Origin: Clostridia bacterium
Lineage (GTDB): Bacteria; Bacillota; Limnochordia; DTU080; RSA5
Assembly (NCBI GenBank): GCA_002919235.1
Contig: PKEX01000028.1
Location: 2,839 to 66,838, forward strand
Length of the DNA stretch: 64,000 nucleotides
Direction of reading: 5' to 3'
Made by a program: the position numbers and the translations under genes. Below, piece after piece: positions 15,862 to 60,504 of the stretch (positions are counted from its first letter, which is position 1; every line of letters begins with the position of its first letter). Below the pieces are notes generated by a model. The model was not told where the DNA came from and searched no databases. It saw only the letters and a list, made by a program, of their open reading frames with translations.

Positions 15862-16038
15862 GCGCCGAAGACGGGCGAACGCGAAGCGAATCCCAACTTT
15901 TCCGGAGGCGAATCGGCGCGGGCGTCGAAGGTGTAAAGGGCCGCTTTGCCTTACTCCTTCCCCGTGCCAGATCAAGGCATCCCGAACACAGGCGGCGTGC
16001 CTGGATCACGTCAAACTCAACCCTGGAGGTTAGCCACG

Positions 16039-18006
16039 ATGCTGCAGCGAGTTGCCCACACAGTGCGCGCCTTGACGGCGGATGCGGTCGAGGCGGCAAA
16101 GTCAGGACACCCGGGCCTGCCGCTGGGCATGGCCGAGGTCGGCGCGCTCCTCTACGGCAAGATCCTGCGCCACGACCCGGCGTGGCCCGAGTGGCCTGAC
16201 CGCGACCGGGTGGTCCTTTCGGCGGGCCACGGGTCGATGTGGCTCTACAGCTTGCTCCACCTGTCGGGCTACGACCTTTCGCTGGATGAGATCAAGAGGT
16301 TCCGCCAGCTGGGTTCGGCGACGCCCGGCCATCCCGAGCACGGCGAGACGCCGGGGGTAGAGACCACCACCGGACCCCTGGGACAGGGGATCGCCAACGC
16401 CGTGGGCATGGCGCTGGCCGAGCGGATGCTGGCGGCCCGTTTCAACCGGCCGGGGCATGAGATCGTGGGCCACTACACCTACGTCATTGCCAGCGACGGC
16501 GACCTGATGGAAGGCGTCGCCGCTGAAGCCTCGTCTCTCGCAGGCCACCTGGGCCTGGGCCGGCTCATCGTCTTTTACGACGACAACCAGATCACCATCG
16601 AGGGCAAGACGTCCCTGGCCTTCTCCGAGGACGTGGCCAAGCGCTACGAAGCCTACGGCTGGCACGTGCTCTTCGTGGACGGACACGACATGGCGGCGGT
16701 GGAGGAAGCGATCCGCGCCGCTCAGGCCGAGACGGAGCGGCCGAGCCTCATCGTGACCAAGACCACCATCGGCTGGGGCACGCCCATCGCCGGCACCTCC
16801 AAGGTGCACAGCGACCCGCTGGGTGCCGAGAACATCGCCGCGCTCAAGGCGAAGATCGGCTGGCCCGAGGAGCCGTTCTACGTCCCCGCCGAGGTGTACG
16901 AGTTCTTCAACGAGCGCAAGAAGGAGCTGGCCAAGGAGAGCGCCGCGTGGAAGGAGCGCTTTGAAGCCTGGTCCAAGGCGTATCCCGAGCTGAGGGCCGA
17001 GTGGGACAAGGCCTTCGGCCTCGAGCTGCCCGAGGATCTGGAAAGCGCCCTGCCCGAGTTTGCGCCGGGCGAGAAGGTCGCCACCCGGGCCGCGGCGGGC
17101 AAGGTGCTCCAGAAGCTGGCCGAGCGGGTGCCGTACCTGGTGGGCGGCTCGGGCGATCTGCATCCTTCGACCAAGACCTACATTGAAGGCGCCGCCGCGG
17201 TGACCAAGGGCGAGTACGGCGGCCGCAACCTCCACTTCGGCGTGCGGGAGCACGGCATGGGCGCCATGCTCAACGGCATGCAGCTCCACGGCGGCTTCCG
17301 CGTGTACGGGTCCACCTTCCTCACCTTCGCCGACTACATGCGGCCGTCCATCCGCCTCGCAGCGCTGATGAAGCAGCCGGTGATCTTCATCTTCACGCAC
17401 GATTCGGTATACGTCGGCGAGGACGGCCCCACGCACCAGCCGGTGGAGCAGGCCGAATCGCTCCGCATCATCCCCAACGTGGAGGTGTACCGCCCGGCCG
17501 ACGCGGTCGAGGCGGGCCTGGCCTGGATCGAAGCGCTGAAGCGGACGGACGGCCCCACCGTGCTGCTCTTTACCCGGCAGAACGTGCCGGTGCTGGAGCG
17601 GCAGGAGCGCCCGGACCTGAGCCGGGGCGCGTACGTGATCAAGCGGGAGGAGAACGCCCTGGCCGCCGTGATCCTAGCCAGCGGGAGCGAAGTGGCGCTG
17701 GCGCTGGACGCCGCCGCCCAGCTGGAGACGGAAGGCATCGGCGTCCGTGTGGTGTCGGTGCCCAACCGGGAGCTCTTCCTGCGCCAGGACGCCGCCTACC
17801 AGGAGTCGGTCGCGCCGGCCGGCACGCCCAGGCTGGTGGTGGAGGCGGGCGTCGGCCACGGCTGGAGGGGCTTGGCAGGGGAAAACGGCCGGATCCTTTC
17901 TATCGAGCGCTTCGGCGTGAGCGCTCCGGGTGCCCAGGCCGCGGCACACCTTGGCCTCACGGTCGAGCGGGCGGTGGCGCTGGTCAAGGAGATGATTGGC
18001 AAGTAA
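16039..18006 (+). CDS. tkt: transketolase
   Basis: ATG at 16039 lies 8 nt after [50 protein letters not shown] and [10 protein letters not shown] are present over a full-length ~655 aa. Confidence 0.95.
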
Positions 18007-18210: not shown

Positions 18211-18642
18211 TCATTCGGGGGAGGAGGCGGCGCCGGGATGTGCGAAGCGGCGGCGCAGCAAGGTGTAGGCCACGCGCCACGCGATCAGGCAGGCCGCGCC
18301 CAGCAGAAAGGCGACCACGGCAAAAAGCAGCGGCGCGCCGCGCTGGAGCAAGAGGACCCGGAGCTGCATCGCGATGGGAATCGTGAGCAGCCACGCCAGG
18401 GCGGCGCTCCGGACGGCAGGCCCGACGCCCGTCACCGCCCGCTCCCAAAAGACGCCGAGCCAAAGGCCGATGGCCACCCAGGCGATGAGAAAAGGCACTG
18501 CCGTGATCAGCACGGACAGCGCGCCGCGGGCGGTGCCGTGTTCGATCATGCCCAGCAGCGTGAAGATGATGACCACGACGAGGTCCCCCAGAAAGAGCGA
18601 GGGGAGAAAGCGGCCGCGGGTTCCGCCCAAAGCCCGGGTCAA
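18211..18642 (-). CDS. DUF3054-like small membrane protein
   Basis: 143 aa with four hydrophobic segments. LGDLVVVIIFTLLGMIEHG resembles the DUF3054 N-terminal motif. It overlaps the upstream gene by 4 nt. Confidence 0.55.
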   Translation of the reverse strand: MTRALGGTRGRFLPSLFLGDLVVVIIFTLLGMIEHGTARGALSVLITAVPFLIAWVAIGLWLGVFWERAVTGVGPAVRSAALAWLLTIPIAMQLRVLLLQRGAPLLFAVVAFLLGAACLIAWRVAYTLLRRRFAHPGAASSPE

Positions 18643-18947
18643 CGCCCATCGCCTCCTTCGCGAAATTCTTCCGCTTCGCCGTCTCCTTCGACGTAGTCGG
18701 GCTGCGTTCCCGTGTCGGGGGCCGGGATGGGCTCCCCTTGGGGCCAGAGCTTTTCATGGATGCACTCCCAGACACCGTCGTCCAGCTTGACCACCCAGAT
18801 CAAACTTTGCCCGGGGTTGTGGACGAAGGCGTCGCTGTTCAGCAAGAACCATTCGCCCCGGCGGTTGCCGATGGCGGGTTTTCCGTCGAGATAGCCGATG
18901 TGCCAATCGCCGGCGGCTTGCGCTCGTTCGATCACGGTCAACGTCAT
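18639..18947 (-). CDS. hypothetical protein (102 aa), acidic C-terminus
   Basis: The ORF has GC3-rich codon usage, AAAGGGG about 9 nt upstream of the ATG, and translational coupling to the DUF3054 gene. I recognise no family. Confidence 0.5.
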   Translation of the reverse strand: MTLTVIERAQAAGDWHIGYLDGKPAIGNRRGEWFLLNSDAFVHNPGQSLIWVVKLDDGVWECIHEKLWPQGEPIPAPDTGTQPDYVEGDGEAEEFREGGDGR

Positions 18948-19205: not shown

Positions 19206-19490
19206 ATGATGAGGGAACAACCTCCGGCCCCGCGGGTGCGGATCACGGCGCTGTCCTTGACCAGCAGCCTGGAACTGGCGGTGGCGTTGGTTGCGCTGGC
19301 GGCCTGGCTGGCCATGCAGGAGCTGGCTCCTCTCTTGATCGCCGCCGCCGTGTTGGTGTCGGGACCCTTGGAGGCCCGGGTACGAAAGCTCTGCGGTTCC
19401 CTGCTCTCCCGCTGGGGCGGGGAGGCAGCCGGGCGCCAGGGGCCGAGACTGATCGCCCTCTTGTGCCTGCTCTGGGCGGCCTTGGCCTGA
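19206..19490 (+). CDS. hypothetical small membrane protein (94 aa)
   Basis: ATG at 19206 lies 8 nt after GAGGAGG (19191-19197). Two to three hydrophobic segments (LELAVALVALAAWLA, LLIAAAVLV, LIALLCLLWAALA) are present. A CCCGGCGCCGGG hairpin plus a T-rich tail follows the stop. Confidence 0.45.
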   Translation: MMREQPPAPRVRITALSLTSSLELAVALVALAAWLAMQELAPLLIAAAVLVSGPLEARVRKLCGSLLSRWGGEAAGRQGPRLIALLCLLWAALA

Positions 19491-19652
19491 CCCTCCCGGC
19501 GCCGGGCGGTATTTTCTTATAGGTTCGTGGATAATTTCTAATAGTCTCATGAAGGAATCTCTCGGACGATGACGAAAAGGAATGAACCACCTAAAAGAGG
19601 TGGAATAGGGGACGGTCGACCCTAGGTCGACCCGAAACCAATCGAGAAAAAC

Positions 19653-19780
19653 CAAGACGCAAGACAAGCGAAAAGGGCAAACCCGGCGAAAGCCGGGGAC
19701 GCAAAGCCGTGAGTCTAAGGCATTCGTGCACCGCTTCGGGCACGGGTGCTATGACCGTCAGGTTGCCGCTCGTCGTCTTG
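19653..19780 (+). promoter_or_regulatory. c-di-GMP-I (GEMM-I) riboswitch aptamer
   Basis: GGGCAAACC-CGGC-GAAA-GCCG-GGGACGCAAAGCC (19675-19708) matches the hallmark core of the Vibrio Vc2 aptamer (GGGCAAACC-AUUC-GAAA-GAGU-GGGACGCAAAGCC). The second hairpin carries a GAAA-tetraloop receptor (UCUAAG 19713-19718 opposite UAUGA 19750-19754). A UUGC junction follows. P1 closes as CAAGACG (19653-19659) with CGTCTTG (19774-19780). Confidence 0.85.
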
Positions 19781-19784
19781 ATTT

Positions 19785-19829
19785 GCCTGCGAGTGCCGCG
19801 GGGTGACGAGGGCACGAGCAGGCTTTTTT
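19785..19829 (+). terminator. intrinsic terminator forming the riboswitch expression platform
   Basis: GCCTGCGAGTGCC (19785-19797) pairs with GGCACGAGCAGGC (19811-19823) as 6 bp + a 2x2 internal loop + 5 bp, followed by TTTTTT (19824-19829). It starts 5 nt after the P1 3' strand. Confidence 0.8.
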
Positions 19830-20118
19830 CATCTATACAACTTTTTGCATCGCCCCGGCGCACCGGGAATGCGCCGGGACGGTGCGGCGCCTCTCCGGTG
19901 CACCGGAGGCAGTGAGGTGTGCCGGACGGGTACTCTGGGGTGCGCTGGATGGATGCCCGTCATCCACGGCGTGTTCGGGGGCCTGTGAGAACTCAGCCGC
20001 CGCCGCAAGGGGGGGTGGAAGCTGCGAGGTCGACGCAGCGCTGTCCGGCGGGCGGCGAGCGGAGCGCACGGAGCGCTTTGCTGAACGAGACACGTTCTTG
20101 GTCGGGAGGGCGTGGTCG

Positions 20119-20247
20119 ATGGTGAGGCGTTTCCTGGTCAGACTTCTGGGGAAACTGGGGCTGTTCCGCCCGGCAACCGTCAGCACAGGCCTGACACCTG
20201 AAGAGTATCAGATGCTGCGGGAGCTGGTGGCGGGAAAGAAAGTGTAG
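20119..20247 (+). CDS. candidate small protein (42 aa), untracked as a separate ORF
   Basis: ATG at 20119 lies 8 nt after GGGAGGG (20104-20110). Translation is MVRRFLVRLLGKLGLFRPATVSTGLTPEEYQMLRELVAGKKV. Codon usage is less GC3-biased than in neighbouring genes. It is the first SD-preceded ORF downstream of the riboswitch. Confidence 0.4.
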   Translation: MVRRFLVRLLGKLGLFRPATVSTGLTPEEYQMLRELVAGKKV

Positions 20248-20360
20248 GCTGCGCAGCGACCCCACGGACCTTTGAACCGCTGGCTGCCAGCGACAGCTGC
20301 TCAGTGAATCGTGTGCCGTTTCAATTTTCCTCCACAGCAACTCCATGGTGCACGTCAGGT

Positions 20361-20393
20361 GAACGCCCTGCCTTCGCCCTTGGCAGGGCGTTC
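20361..20393 (+). terminator. strong hairpin, possible terminator between the small ORF and the convergent lacI-family gene
   Basis: GAACGCCCTGCC (20361-20372) pairs with GGCAGGGCGTTC (20382-20393), a 12-bp perfect stem. Only a weak T tract (GCCTTTCC) follows. Confidence 0.35.
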
Positions 20394-20438
20394 GCCTTTC
20401 CGGGGCCACGCGCGGCAGCGGCGCGGTCTTTGCCCCGT

Positions 20439-21524
20439 TCACCGGCGGGCCCTTAACGAAGAAGCGCGAACCACCAGCTGGCCTCTGACTTCGACCACTT
20501 TGGGATGAGATGCCGGGTCGCCCGGCTCCCGGTCTTGGAGGCCCGCCGGCTCCTGGCTGGCCAGGCGCTTGAGCGCCAGCGCGGCAGCCCGGCCCATGGC
20601 CACCGGATCTTGCCGGACGGTGGTGAGCGGGGGTGTGACGTGCTGGGCCAGGGGAAGGTCGTCGAAACCGGCCACGGCCACGTCGTGGGGGACGGAGAGG
20701 CCCAGGTCGGCCAGGGCGCGGAGAGCCCCGGCGGCCATCAGATCGCTGGCGGCGAACACCGCGTCAAAGGGCGCCTCCCGCCAGGCGGCCCGCACGGCGG
20801 CGTACGCTTGCTCCCGGCTGAAGTGGCCGTAGACCACCCGCGCCGCTGCGGCGGGCATCCCGTGCCGGCGCAGGGCGTCGCGATAGCCCTGCTCTCTCGC
20901 GCGGTGCACGGCGGTGTTGGGCTGGCCGCCGACGAAGAGAATCCGGCGGCAGCCTTGCTCTATCAGGTGGCTGGTGACGGCGGCGGCCTGCGCCGTGTTG
21001 TCGGACGTGACCATCACCATCCGCCGGCCGCGAGGTGTGATGTCGATGGTGACGGTGGGAACGCCCAGCCGTTCCAGCTCGTCCAGGTAGGGATGGTCGT
21101 CGGTCAGGCCCATGACGATCAGCCCGGCGATGCGGGTGCCCTTGATGACGGCTTCAATGCGTTCCGGGGCGCTGGGGCTGCCGGGCCGCCGGGCCAGCAG
21201 CAAGACGTGCTGGCCCAGCTCCGCCGCCTGGTCCCGCACGCCGCAGAGGACAGGGAGAAAGAAGGGCTGCTCGGCCAAGGGGATGCCCTGGTCGTCGATG
21301 TACACGCCGACCAGCGTGGGCTCCCTGCGGACCAAGTTCTGCGCGATGAAGTCCGGCGTGTACCCGAGCTGTTGGGCGATCTGCCGGACCCTCGCCCTCG
21401 TTCTCGGGCTGACGTCGGGATAGCCGGCCAGCGCCCGGCTGGCGGTGGTGATGGAGACGTTGGCCGCTTTGGCCACGTCTCTCAGGGTGACCCCTCGCTT
21501 GTCGGACGCCCCGCCGCGGTTCAC
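20439..21524 (-). CDS. LacI-family transcriptional regulator
   Basis: N-terminal HTH VTLRDVAKAANVSITTASRALAG followed by a periplasmic-binding-protein-like sugar-binding core. It sits immediately downstream of the glycosidase gene on the same strand. Confidence 0.9.
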   Translation of the reverse strand: MNRGGASDKRGVTLRDVAKAANVSITTASRALAGYPDVSPRTRARVRQIAQQLGYTPDFIAQNLVRREPTLVGVYIDDQGIPLAEQPFFLPVLCGVRDQAAELGQHVLLLARRPGSPSAPERIEAVIKGTRIAGLIVMGLTDDHPYLDELERLGVPTVTIDITPRGRRMVMVTSDNTAQAAAVTSHLIEQGCRRILFVGGQPNTAVHRAREQGYRDALRRHGMPAAAARVVYGHFSREQAYAAVRAAWREAPFDAVFAASDLMAAGALRALADLGLSVPHDVAVAGFDDLPLAQHVTPPLTTVRQDPVAMGRAAALALKRLASQEPAGLQDREPGDPASHPKVVEVRGQLVVRASSLRARR

Positions 21525-58404: not shown

Positions 58405-58427
58405 CTCCACGGCAGTGGAGTCTTTTT
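58403..58427 (+). terminator. intrinsic terminator ending the two-gene module
   Basis: GACTCCAC (58403-58410), loop GGCA, GTGGAGTC (58415-58422), then TTTTT (58423-58427). Confidence 0.85.
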
Positions 58428-58683
58428 CGTTCATGGGGGTTCCTCAGTCTTTGGGGCTTTTCGAAGACGAACTGGGGGAGGGTTCAGCCGGCCCGCGGGC
58501 AGCGCAGGACGAAGACGGCGGTTCACCGCGGCAGGGATCCCGCGCGGCGGCATCGAAGACCGCGGCGGGCGGCCGGTGCCAAAGGTTCGCCGCGAGGCGC
58601 CGGGAGCGCGCCGGGTGGGCGCCGTGGCTTGGCCTCCTCGCCACGACGGAGCAGTTCAACGGAGTCTGAAAGGAGCATCCCCT

Positions 58684-60504
58684 TTGGACGCACAGGGTGT
58701 GAGCAGGCCTGGGAACAGCGAAGGCCGCGCGGCGGGACAAGCCCCGAAGGCGGCGGCCGGCGCGGCGGGTCTTGCCGGGAACGGCGGCTCTAAGCCCATC
58801 CCGCACCTGAGGTGGCGAGAGGCCGCGGGAGCCCGGGCCGGCCAAAGAACGGCAGAGCTGATCGTGGACGGTGAGCCGTTTCTCATCCTCGGCGGGGAGC
58901 TGGGAAACTCGTCGGCCTCAAGCCTCGAGTACGTCAACGCCGCGTGGCCCCGCCTCCGCGAGCTCCATTTGAACACGGTGCTGGCTCCGGTCTACTGGGA
59001 TCTCATCGAGCCCGAAGAGGGCCGGTTTGATTTCTCCCTGGTCGACGGGTTGATCGCCGGCGCCCGGGAGCACGGCATGCGGCTGGTGCTGCTCTGGTTC
59101 GGCAGCTGGAAGAACTGCATGTCCTGCTACGTGCCGGCGTGGATCAAGACGGACCCGGAGCGGTTTCCCCGAGTCCGCAGCAGCTCGGGCCAGGCCCAAG
59201 AGATGCTCTCCGCCTTTTATGAAGACAACGCTGCAGCGGACGTCAGGGCCTTCGCGGCGCTCATGCGCCATCTCCGGGAGGTGGACGAAGCCCACCGCAC
59301 GGTCATCATGGTCCAGGTGGAAAACGAGATCGGCATGATCCCCGAGCCCCGGGATTACAGCGAGGCGGCCAACCGGGCGTACCGGAGCCCCGTGCCGGCC
59401 GAGCTCATCGCGTACCTGGTGGAGCACCGGGACGAGCTGGCGCCTGAATTGAAGGCGCGCTGGGAAGGCCAGGGCGCAAGGACGGCGGGGACGTGGGAAG
59501 ATGTCTTTGGCCCCGGCGTCGCGACGGAGGAGATCTTCCAGGCGTGGCACTTCGCCGTGTACGTGCAGCGGGTGGCCGCGGCCGGGAAGGCCGAGTACCC
59601 GCTCCCGATGTACGTCAACGCGGCGCTGATCCGTCCCGGCTACACTCCGGGCCGCTACGCCAGCGCCGGTCCCCTGCCCCACTTGATCGACGTCTGGCGG
59701 GCCGGGGCGCCGGCCATCGATTTCCTGGCTCCGGACCTCTATTTTCCCAACGTGGTGGAATGGTTCAAGCGGTACGCCGCGGCGGGGAACCCGCTGTTCG
59801 TGCCGGAAATCCGGAAAGAGCCCAGCAACGCCGCCCACGCCTTCTACGCCGTCGGCGAACTGGGGGCGCTGGGCATCAGCCCGTTCTCGATCGAGACCGC
59901 CGACGAGGCGGCGGACGGCCCCCTGGCCCGGTGCTATCGCCTTTTGGCGGAGCTGGCGCCGGTCATCCTGGAGCACCGGGAGAAGGGCGCCGTGCGGGGC
60001 GCGGCGCCGGAAGTCTCCTACTCCGGCGAGGTGCGGGCCTATTCGGAGGAAGTGTCGCTGGGCGGGTACAGGTTCACGTTCACGTTTGAAGGGGCCGGCG
60101 CGACGGGAATCTTCGGCCCGGCGCAGCCGGCTTCCGGGGGTGGGCAGGCAAGCCGAGGGAGCGCGGGGCCCGGGCCGGCCGGGCAAGGCGGAGCCCAAGC
60201 CCTTCCCGGCGCCGATTTCAGCGCCGGCCAGCGCCAGTGGCCCACGGGGTCCGGCGGCCTGCTGATCGCCCTGGGCGGCGACGAGTTCCTCGTCGCCGGC
60301 ACCGGGATCGTCCTCACGTTTGCGTGCGAGGATTCGCCCGGCGAGACGGCCGGCATCCTGTGGGCGCAGGAAGGCGAGTACGTCGACGGCCGCTGGGTCG
60401 CCGGCCGCTGGCTGAACGGCGACCAGACCCACCAGGGCCGGCACATTCGCATCGCCCCCGGCGAGATAGCAATCCAGCGGTTCCGCTTGTACCGGTACCG
60501 GTAG
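58684..60504 (+). CDS. GH35-like beta-galactosidase-type glycoside hydrolase with a DUF5597-like C-terminal domain
   Basis: TTG at 58684 lies 8 nt after AAAGGAG (58669-58675). LIVDGEPFLILGGELGNSSAS, NTVLAPVYWDLIEPEEGRFDF and IMVQVENEIGM (catalytic Glu context) are present. The track start at 58576 is upstream in frame. Confidence 0.65.
   Translation: MDAQGVSRPGNSEGRAAGQAPKAAAGAAGLAGNGGSKPIPHLRWREAAGARAGQRTAELIVDGEPFLILGGELGNSSASSLEYVNAAWPRLRELHLNTVLAPVYWDLIEPEEGRFDFSLVDGLIAGAREHGMRLVLLWFGSWKNCMSCYVPAWIKTDPERFPRVRSSSGQAQEMLSAFYEDNAAADVRAFAALMRHLREVDEAHRTVIMVQVENEIGMIPEPRDYSEAANRAYRSPVPAELIAYLVEHRDELAPELKARWEGQGARTAGTWEDVFGPGVATEEIFQAWHFAVYVQRVAAAGKAEYPLPMYVNAALIRPGYTPGRYASAGPLPHLIDVWRAGAPAIDFLAPDLYFPNVVEWFKRYAAAGNPLFVPEIRKEPSNAAHAFYAVGELGALGISPFSIETADEAADGPLARCYRLLAELAPVILEHREKGAVRGAAPEVSYSGEVRAYSEEVSLGGYRFTFTFEGAGATGIFGPAQPASGGGQASRGSAGPGPAGQGGAQALPGADFSAGQRQWPTGSGGLLIALGGDEFLVAGTGIVLTFACEDSPGETAGILWAQEGEYVDGRWVAGRWLNGDQTHQGRHIRIAPGEIAIQRFRLYRYR

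Follow-up and report, generated by a model that had tools for sequence, protein, structure and literature searches.

A predicted c-di-GMP-I riboswitch precedes a conserved 42-codon gene in a Clostridia bacterium and its relatives

Which gene, if any, answers to a riboswitch that is followed by its own terminator, a long GC-rich leader, and a gene reading towards it from the opposite strand? The question is raised by a locus of a Clostridia bacterium (GTDB Limnochordia; DTU080; RSA5) in a stretch of 64,000 nucleotides (nt), hereafter the window (assembly GCA_002919235.1, contig PKEX01000028.1, positions 2,839–66,838, forward strand), in whose coordinates positions are given. A preliminary description of this DNA had recognized a riboswitch of the cyclic di-GMP class I (c-di-GMP-I) and regarded it as an orphan without a conventional downstream gene. 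The layout that it gave, namely a spacer of ~290 nt, a 42-codon open reading frame (ORF) and a convergent lacI gene, is as described: 289 nt of GC-rich leader separate the U tract of the terminator from the ATG at 20119, and the next gene after the ORF is a convergent LacI-family gene (20439–21524, minus strand). The orphan interpretation has to be given up, because a conserved, coding 42-codon ORF follows the same riboswitch in every lineage examined. We consider it probable that the riboswitch heads a small, self-contained transcription unit for a basic micro-protein with two predicted helices. Behind an AT-rich region, the unit is composed of the following elements in order.

19653–19780, plus strand: c-di-GMP-I aptamer with extended P1 helix (Rfam core, 19667–19771; P1 taken from the minimum-free-energy fold).
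19785–19829, plus strand: intrinsic terminator, GCCUGC-GA-GUGCC / GGCAC-GA-GCAGGC with a 13-nt apical loop and U6 at 19824–19829.
19830–20090, plus strand: variable GC-rich structured leader, unconserved in sequence and length and ~170 nt shorter in five lineages.
20091–20114, plus strand: near-invariant block CACGTTCTTGGTCGGGAGGGCGTG, a predicted 9-bp hairpin (20091–20099 / 20106–20114) with GGGAGGG (20104–20110) in its loop and 3' arm, hereafter the Shine–Dalgarno (SD) block.
20119–20247, plus strand: micro-protein gene of 42 codons, MVRRFLVRLLGKLGLFRPATVSTGLTPEEYQMLRELVAGKKV, recognized by its homologues and its ratio of nonsynonymous to synonymous substitution rates (dN/dS); net charge +5, two predicted helices.

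Eight lineages were compared, comprising the window locus (W), L007/L008/L010, L015, L019, L020, L021, L022, and L023, where L007–L023 denote the loci of relatives and P0002–P0010 homologous proteins. The identity of the aptamer was examined with covariance models, as the preliminary description had proposed. In a cmscan of the whole window against Rfam 15, the sole match at the gathering threshold was one riboswitch, located at 19667–19771 on the plus strand and assigned to RF03167, the c-di-GMP-I-GGC model of clan CL00126; its score is 68.2 bits, where the gathering score is 59 (E-value, 5.2e-14). A permissive rerun (E ≤ 10) over 19450–20480 returned the aptamer again at an E-value of 8e-16 and nothing else credible, the leader and the downstream spacer included. 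A second model of CL00126 also exceeded its own gathering score in the window and was masked in the cmscan output; we infer that this model is RF01051. The orthologous aptamers score 68–81 bits on the Rfam models, with that of L015 reaching 80.1 bits on RF01051 (gathering score, 35), and the 5'-truncated aptamer of L021 still scores 58.1 bits. The strings quoted earlier for the core were all found in the window (GGGCAAACC, the GAAA tetraloop at 19688–19691, and GGGACGCAAAGCC), as were the two halves of an 11-nt-type tetraloop receptor (UCUAAG, 19714–19719, and UAUGA, 19750–19754), into which the tetraloop would dock. In the minimum-free-energy fold of 19650–19835 (−84.9 kcal/mol; z = −3.95 versus shuffles), a two-helix junction is closed by P1, which is lengthened to 19653–19658/19775–19780 and whose outer limit agrees with the start coordinate 19653 given previously; an extra distal hairpin is found in the second helix of the aptamer (~19720–19749). 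The call of a c-di-GMP-I aptamer that has a tetraloop with its receptor and is closed by P1 thus stands, and the element is, as judged from its sequence and predicted fold, a genuine and canonical c-di-GMP-I (GEMM-I) riboswitch with a terminator.

As the best-scoring model for the window is RF03167, the assignment to a variant class was considered in detail. The ligand-contact bases of the Vc2 structure, G20, A47, and C92 (Vc2 numbering), presumably correspond to G19676, A19703, and C19766/67 in our own mapping, and the window carries G19676, A19703, and CC at 19766–19767, the last being C92 by our own reading. In the columns of the Rfam alignment, G occupies the position of G20, and A is found where the consensus of the GGC variant has G. 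The label “GGC” presumably denotes these same three positions. In the RF03167 consensus the string is GACGCGAA; in the window and in every orthologue it is GACGCAAA, the same as in the RF01051 consensus. The GGC variant was accordingly rejected, since the base that appears to define it, G at the position of A47, is absent. Riboswitches of the c-AMP-GMP (GEMM-Ib) class carry A rather than G at position 20, and this class was also rejected, since the window and all orthologues have G there. Moreover, the best Rfam model alternates among near-identical orthologues between RF03167 (68–71 bits) and RF01051 (80.1 bits; L015, 3734–3825), and we conclude from these alignments that the GGC label is probably a product of the choice between closely related models. 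We read the window RNA as an ordinary predicted c-di-GMP sensor, because the canonical ligand-contact bases are present despite the best model being that of the GGC variant. The existence of variants of c-di-GMP-I-type riboswitches has been noted (PMC7266159). For annotation, the case points to a pitfall: canonical aptamers with A47 may receive the GGC-variant label where only the best clan member is kept.

The element thus resembles RF01051 riboswitches such as Vc2 of Vibrio cholerae in its two helices, GAAA tetraloop and receptor, core strings, ligand-contact bases, and covariance-model scores above the thresholds, as well as in its location in the 5' untranslated region and its terminator-type expression platform. 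It differs from Vc2 in the extra distal hairpin of the second helix and an unusually long P1, and its target is a 42-amino-acid micro-protein instead of a GGDEF/EAL, motility, pilus, or adhesin gene. A scan of the window for the GGDEF motif gave a single match, which is a false positive: a 699-residue ORF (58405–60501, plus strand) contains the literal GGDEF string and encodes a glycosidase resembling GH42/GH35 with DUF5597, not a diguanylate cyclase.

What accompanies the riboswitch was determined by inspecting the same locus in related genomes, a check suggested in the preliminary description. Locus L007, found via its neighbouring DUF3054 gene (63% identity), contains an orthologous aptamer (70.9 bits) and, ~175 nt 3' of it, the same SD block and a 42-codon ORF, the product of which is 52% identical to that of the window without a gap. 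The aptamer precedes the micro-ORF in W, L007/L008/L010, L015, L019, L020, L021 (with its 5' end cut), and L023, and the contig of L022 starts within the 3' half of the aptamer; a gene that could be regulated on the same strand, the micro-ORF (20119–20247 in the window), is therefore found 3' of the aptamer in all eight lineages. In the reverse direction, a DNA pattern for this riboswitch subclade retrieved three loci from the JGI metagenomes, each of them followed by the micro-ORF.

The 42-codon ORF also bears the marks of a coding sequence. Homologues of 40–46 residues, 50–65% identical to the window protein, occur in seven further lineages, and across the eight lineages the ORF spans 40–46 codons without an internal stop. 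The Nei–Gojobori dN/dS is 0.07–0.49 for all divergent pairs, with dS near saturation, and changes are in excess at the third codon position (between W and L021, 9 changes at the first, 7 at the second, and 24 at the third position). Eight residues are invariant in the family; its members are very basic (net charge, +5 to +7), lack Cys, and have a C-terminus that is charged and rich in K/R. Taken together, comparison of these sequences indicates that the 42-codon ORF is a conserved protein-coding gene, and the option, raised at the outset, that the RNA controls this ORF has gained ground, since the ORF is a conserved gene linked to the aptamer.

The family is previously uncharacterised and narrow. 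Searches of Pfam, NCBIfam, and PDB sequences gave no relative of the micro-protein. The search with the 42-residue protein alone returned the same species only, which is a limit of the word index, and a metagenome scan with a two-sequence protein alignment gave no match; the reading of the ORF as spurious, which the same-species-only search had suggested, was dropped, as L007 carries the ORF and profile searches recovered the family (P0002, P0003 (NCBI “Limnochordia bacterium”), P0004, P0005, P0006, P0009, and P0010). When 1.84 billion representative proteins were searched exhaustively with the profile, three representative clusters only were obtained, together with two spurious repeat proteins. 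The exact 42-residue protein is present on 92 public contigs. Six public contigs carry the same locus with >99.7% identity and are thus uninformative for comparison; the gene is called in three of the six. An AlphaFold2 model has helices at residues 2–12 and 27–40 with a pLDDT of 66.5, i.e., low to moderate confidence, too low for a fold search. We may speculate that the micro-protein is a small helical hairpin that acts in regulation or binds to membranes or nucleic acids.

The genes around the unit differ from lineage to lineage. Among the relatives, glpD–glpP upstream with an ABC transporter downstream, amtB–glnB upstream with a convergent Na/H exchanger downstream, and an alpha-amylase gene downstream were found, and in L022 a convergent gene with lacI beyond it; the micro-ORF is the only element that always accompanies the riboswitch. 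Because the flanking genes differ between lineages, the riboswitch and the micro-ORF can be regarded, from gene order, as a self-contained unit. The lacI gene, correctly placed in the window from the beginning, is by the same token no conserved neighbour of the riboswitch. The following element lies between the micro-ORF and the lacI stop.

20357–20397, strand unassigned: strong hairpin (−33.9 kcal/mol on the plus strand, −30.3 on the minus strand) with a poor U tract on both strands, which probably ends one or both of the transcripts.

These surroundings bear on the possibility that the RNA acts in antisense, read-through into the convergent lacI lowering its expression and thereby coupling c-di-GMP to a LacI-controlled glycoside hydrolase locus. 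In a genome survey, no riboswitch family was more enriched for antisense placement than that of c-di-GMP, placement opposite transcription-factor genes included (PMC9943018), and the window agrees with such cases in that its next annotated gene is convergent, as is the gene of L022 that has a LacI gene beyond. It departs from them in having a conserved ORF on the sense strand and the −33.9 kcal/mol hairpin in between, and in that the convergent gene is unconserved, its place being taken in other lineages by the convergent Na/H exchanger or, behind a clean terminator, by an ABC operon read in the same direction as the riboswitch. Furthermore, the lacI stop is ~610 nt past the terminator, beyond the 500 nt of the survey, so that neither a convergent target within ~500 nt nor a conserved arrangement is present. 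We judge antisense action on lacI to be highly improbable and retain the micro-ORF as the target.

If the micro-ORF is the target, how would the aptamer control it? The intrinsic terminator, which had been placed right after the aptamer from sequence, was confirmed by folding: the hairpin at 19785–19823 (6 bp, a tandem G-A, and 5 bp; −26.5 kcal/mol; z = −2.8) is GC-rich and immediately followed by U6, as in rho-independent terminators. A simple terminator/promoter scanner gave no call at all, the apical loop of the hairpin exceeding its 8-nt limit; this miss was rejected as evidence against the terminator in view of the folded hairpin and U6. A hairpin occurs at the same position, directly 3' of P1, in all eight lineages (−23.9 to −30.3 kcal/mol), with a U-rich tract behind it in five (W, L019, L020, L021, and L022). 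A MAFFT alignment had suggested that the terminator is an insertion specific to the window, which was rejected upon per-lineage folding and inspection. The sequences CTCGTC (19769–19774) and GACGAG (19805–19810), proposed earlier as alternative partners, are found at these positions and are complementary, the latter being part of a longer box.

19805–19815, plus strand: GACGAG-GGCAC box in the loop and 3' arm of the terminator, a candidate antiterminator partner that complements the P1 3' strand and junction, UGCC-g-CUCGUC (19764–19774).

This box is kept as GACGRGGGC in all five lineages with a U tract, and its extended pairing, UGCC-g-CUCGUC with GACGRG-GGCR, overlaps the inner 3' arm of the terminator. 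The arms of P1 and the terminator do not overlap, and both helices are present in the minimum-free-energy fold. By established riboswitch logic, such coexistence marks an OFF switch. The compatibility of P1 with the terminator makes a transcriptional OFF switch the most natural reading, as had been supposed in the preliminary description, and with the box retained in the five lineages we lean towards it. Binding of c-di-GMP would lock the junction and P1, making the 3' strand UGCC-g-CUCGUC unavailable, whereupon the terminator hairpin would form, transcription would end at U6, and no micro-protein would be made. With no ligand, the P1 3' strand might instead engage the terminator during transcription, at its apical portion and 3' side, through GACGAG-GGCA or, in a second register, through ACGAGC; some polymerases would then read through into the micro-ORF, translation of which may be further tuned by the SD hairpin.

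Several observations weigh against this reading. A CU tract without a U run follows the hairpin in three of the eight lineages (L010, L015, and L023), and termination may therefore not be a mechanism shared by all. When forced, both antiterminator folds are less stable than the minimum, by 3.0 kcal/mol for the pairing of GCUCGU (19768–19773) with ACGAGC (19814–19819) and by 8.4 kcal/mol for that of CUCGUC with GACGAG, and the energies of the antiterminator duplexes are no better than those of shuffled controls, so that no statistical support is claimed for them. The outer stem of the terminator has a probability of 0.98–0.99 at equilibrium without ligand at 37, 50, and 60 °C; the switching must therefore be kinetic, or else the element is mostly terminated by default. 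As for the aptamer itself, its core is almost invariant across the lineages and gives little covariation support beyond the Rfam score; RNAalifold on six aptamers found one compensatory pair only, the core being too invariant for independent support. The protein family, finally, is known from a handful of lineages only.

A transcript that is mostly terminated could be a product in its own right. In Bdellovibrio, the massively expressed merRNA, a c-di-GMP-I aptamer in a transcript annotated without a conventional gene as in the window, has been proposed to be free-standing, as no conserved ORF follows it (PMC3627812). With this published precedent, and with a terminator predicted to form almost completely without ligand, a terminated RNA of ~180–250 nt could dominate at the present locus also and accumulate as a c-di-GMP sponge or a trans-acting small RNA, the micro-ORF being secondary. 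The preliminary description had named such an RNA as an option. The proposal for merRNA, however, rested on there being no conserved ORF, whereas here the ORF is under purifying selection in all eight lineages, and three lineages lack a U tract behind the hairpin. A free-standing or dual-function RNA is consequently improbable in our estimation, and control of the micro-ORF by the riboswitch is preferred.

The sign of this control can be compared with a recently described system. In Clostridioides difficile, c-di-GMP represses the CD1980.2/CD2309 small-protein genes through the riboswitches Cdi1_6 and Cdi1_8 to Cdi1_11, a repression that the authors read as premature termination, and some of these riboswitches formerly had no annotated downstream gene (bioRxiv 10.64898/2026.06.10.731418, June 2026). 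As in the window, a c-di-GMP-I riboswitch is combined with a very small protein in a member of the Bacillota, and this precedent supports the OFF logic. The proteins themselves are different. Those of C. difficile have 58 residues and are predicted to fold into four helices, the C-terminal one being hydrophobic; they carry a conserved Cys, are multicopy, and have no homologues reported outside C. difficile (bioRxiv 10.64898/2026.06.10.731418). The window family, of 40–46 residues, lacks Cys, has two predicted helices and a C-terminus that is charged, and is represented once in the window. The profile search of 1.84 billion representative proteins included no 58-residue match, and neither homology nor the length, hydrophobic C-terminal helix, or Cys of the CD1980.2 family was found in the window protein. 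The two families thus appear to be unrelated, being set apart by their descriptions and the profile search, as the C. difficile sequences are given in figures only.

The same system supplies evidence for and against a switch of the opposite sign, in which more micro-protein would be expressed with ligand, as through release of the SD from its hairpin or prevention of termination. Plasmid reporters of the analogous C. difficile riboswitches rise ~2-fold at high c-di-GMP, and an ON or translational switch would also suit the three lineages without a U run after the hairpin and the existence of a conserved hairpin that holds the SD; against these points, repression was seen in C. difficile with chromosomal reporters, with RNA-seq, and on immunoblots alike. 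In addition, no conserved pairing between the aptamer and the SD block was found, and the coexistence of P1 and the terminator with non-overlapping arms is that of an OFF switch. We assign little probability to an ON switch and keep to the OFF switch.

Upstream of the aptamer, the AT-rich stretch noticed earlier proved to contain the lowest-GC 96-mer of the window, and three features were distinguished there.

19510–19605, plus strand: lowest-GC stretch in a 96-nt composition scan (37.5% GC versus 67.9% for the window), a likely promoter region.
19553–19576, plus strand: two-part motif AGGAATC-N11-GACGAA, kept between loci and resembling the sigma-H promoter consensus.
19587–19632, plus strand: hairpins of the 5' leader before the aptamer, CCACCT/AGGTGG (19587–19603) and the duplicated palindrome GGTCGACC-CTA-GGTCGACC (19614–19632).

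In 21 of 21 loci with enough upstream DNA, the pattern AGGAWWY-N11-GACGAA has a single occurrence, which invariably precedes the aptamer. It has one occurrence in the window and no match in 100 shuffles, a circular statistic in that the pattern was derived from these sequences; the real evidence for the motif lies in its positional conservation. The Bacillus sigma-H consensus is RNAGGAWWW at −35 and RNNGAATWW at −10 (PMC8510167), to which the match is nearly perfect in L010 (GAAGGATTT-N11-GACGAAT). The window itself does not match the strict consensus, having GAAA where the consensus has GAAT, which adds to the points held against our reading above. On these grounds we propose the motif as a putative sigma-H-type promoter; transcription is predicted to start at ~19583–19590. 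The hairpins of the 5' leader are a peculiarity of the window, and L010, L015, and L019 do not have them.

A bolder reading combines this promoter with the OFF switch and the C. difficile precedent: the micro-protein would serve specifically as an output effector of c-di-GMP in these high-GC Bacillota. A promoter of the sigma-H type, active in stationary phase or early sporulation, would drive its expression, c-di-GMP would repress it, and it would have evolved independently of the CD1980.2 proteins while doing the same job. In a still bolder form, the terminated aptamer RNA would also buffer c-di-GMP. We regard the effector reading as rather unlikely as a whole; if true, riboswitch-gated micro-proteins would be a recurrent route by which Bacillota couple c-di-GMP to development.

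Between the terminator and the micro-ORF, conservation is concentrated in the SD block. This 24-nt block is nearly invariant across the eight lineages, and the remaining leader is not alignable. Its hairpin (−14.3 kcal/mol in the window; z = −2.6) has the same stem in four of the five lineages folded, and its GGGAGGG is located 9 nt upstream of the ATG of the micro-ORF. The hairpin is U-G-rich, and the conservation of the block goes beyond the needs of a ribosome-binding site; it could be a second layer of translational control or a protein-binding site. A pseudogene remnant in 19830–20118 was considered and found unsupported, as the extended ORF of 121 residues has no Pfam match and the region is unconserved in sequence and length.

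Some further observations concern the surroundings of the unit. A backbone running from transketolase, DUF3054, and a ~100-residue ORF to ThuA is common to the relatives (18211–18947 and 15946–18006 in the window), and the genes flanking the riboswitch unit within it are swapped, being glpD–glpP and an ABC transporter in relatives and a 94-residue ORF, lacI, and a glycoside-hydrolase-like gene in the window. A group II intron match (RF00029, 48.9 bits) adjoins the DUF3054 gene in L007 (8476–8550, minus strand). Locus L023 is identical to L010 from the end of glpP over the promoter motif into the aptamer, diverges after the aptamer's first part, and has an ORF nearer to P0004, which suggests that the locus is recombinant or the short-read contig chimeric. 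In the assembly GCA_047459575.1 of the same species (L006, ~2060–2064), ~132 bp between the micro-ORF and lacI (20300–20431 in the window), including the hairpin at 20357–20397, are missing; this loss may be a natural deletion or an assembly artefact.

The locus illustrates that an orphan-looking riboswitch can conceal a real micro-protein gene, here one left uncalled in three of six same-species contigs and belonging to no Pfam or NCBIfam family. Its hosts appear, from sequence relationships, to be a few high-GC lineages of Bacillota related to the NCBI-named Limnochordia bacterium, and the micro-protein would accordingly represent a second small-protein family under c-di-GMP-I control, apparently unrelated in sequence to the first and in a group of Bacillota other than that of C. 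difficile. This points to small proteins as a recurrent class of c-di-GMP outputs that has been under-counted. With its promoter motif, aptamer, terminator, SD hairpin, and 42-residue protein, the unit would also offer a compact handle on c-di-GMP signalling in these poorly studied bacteria.

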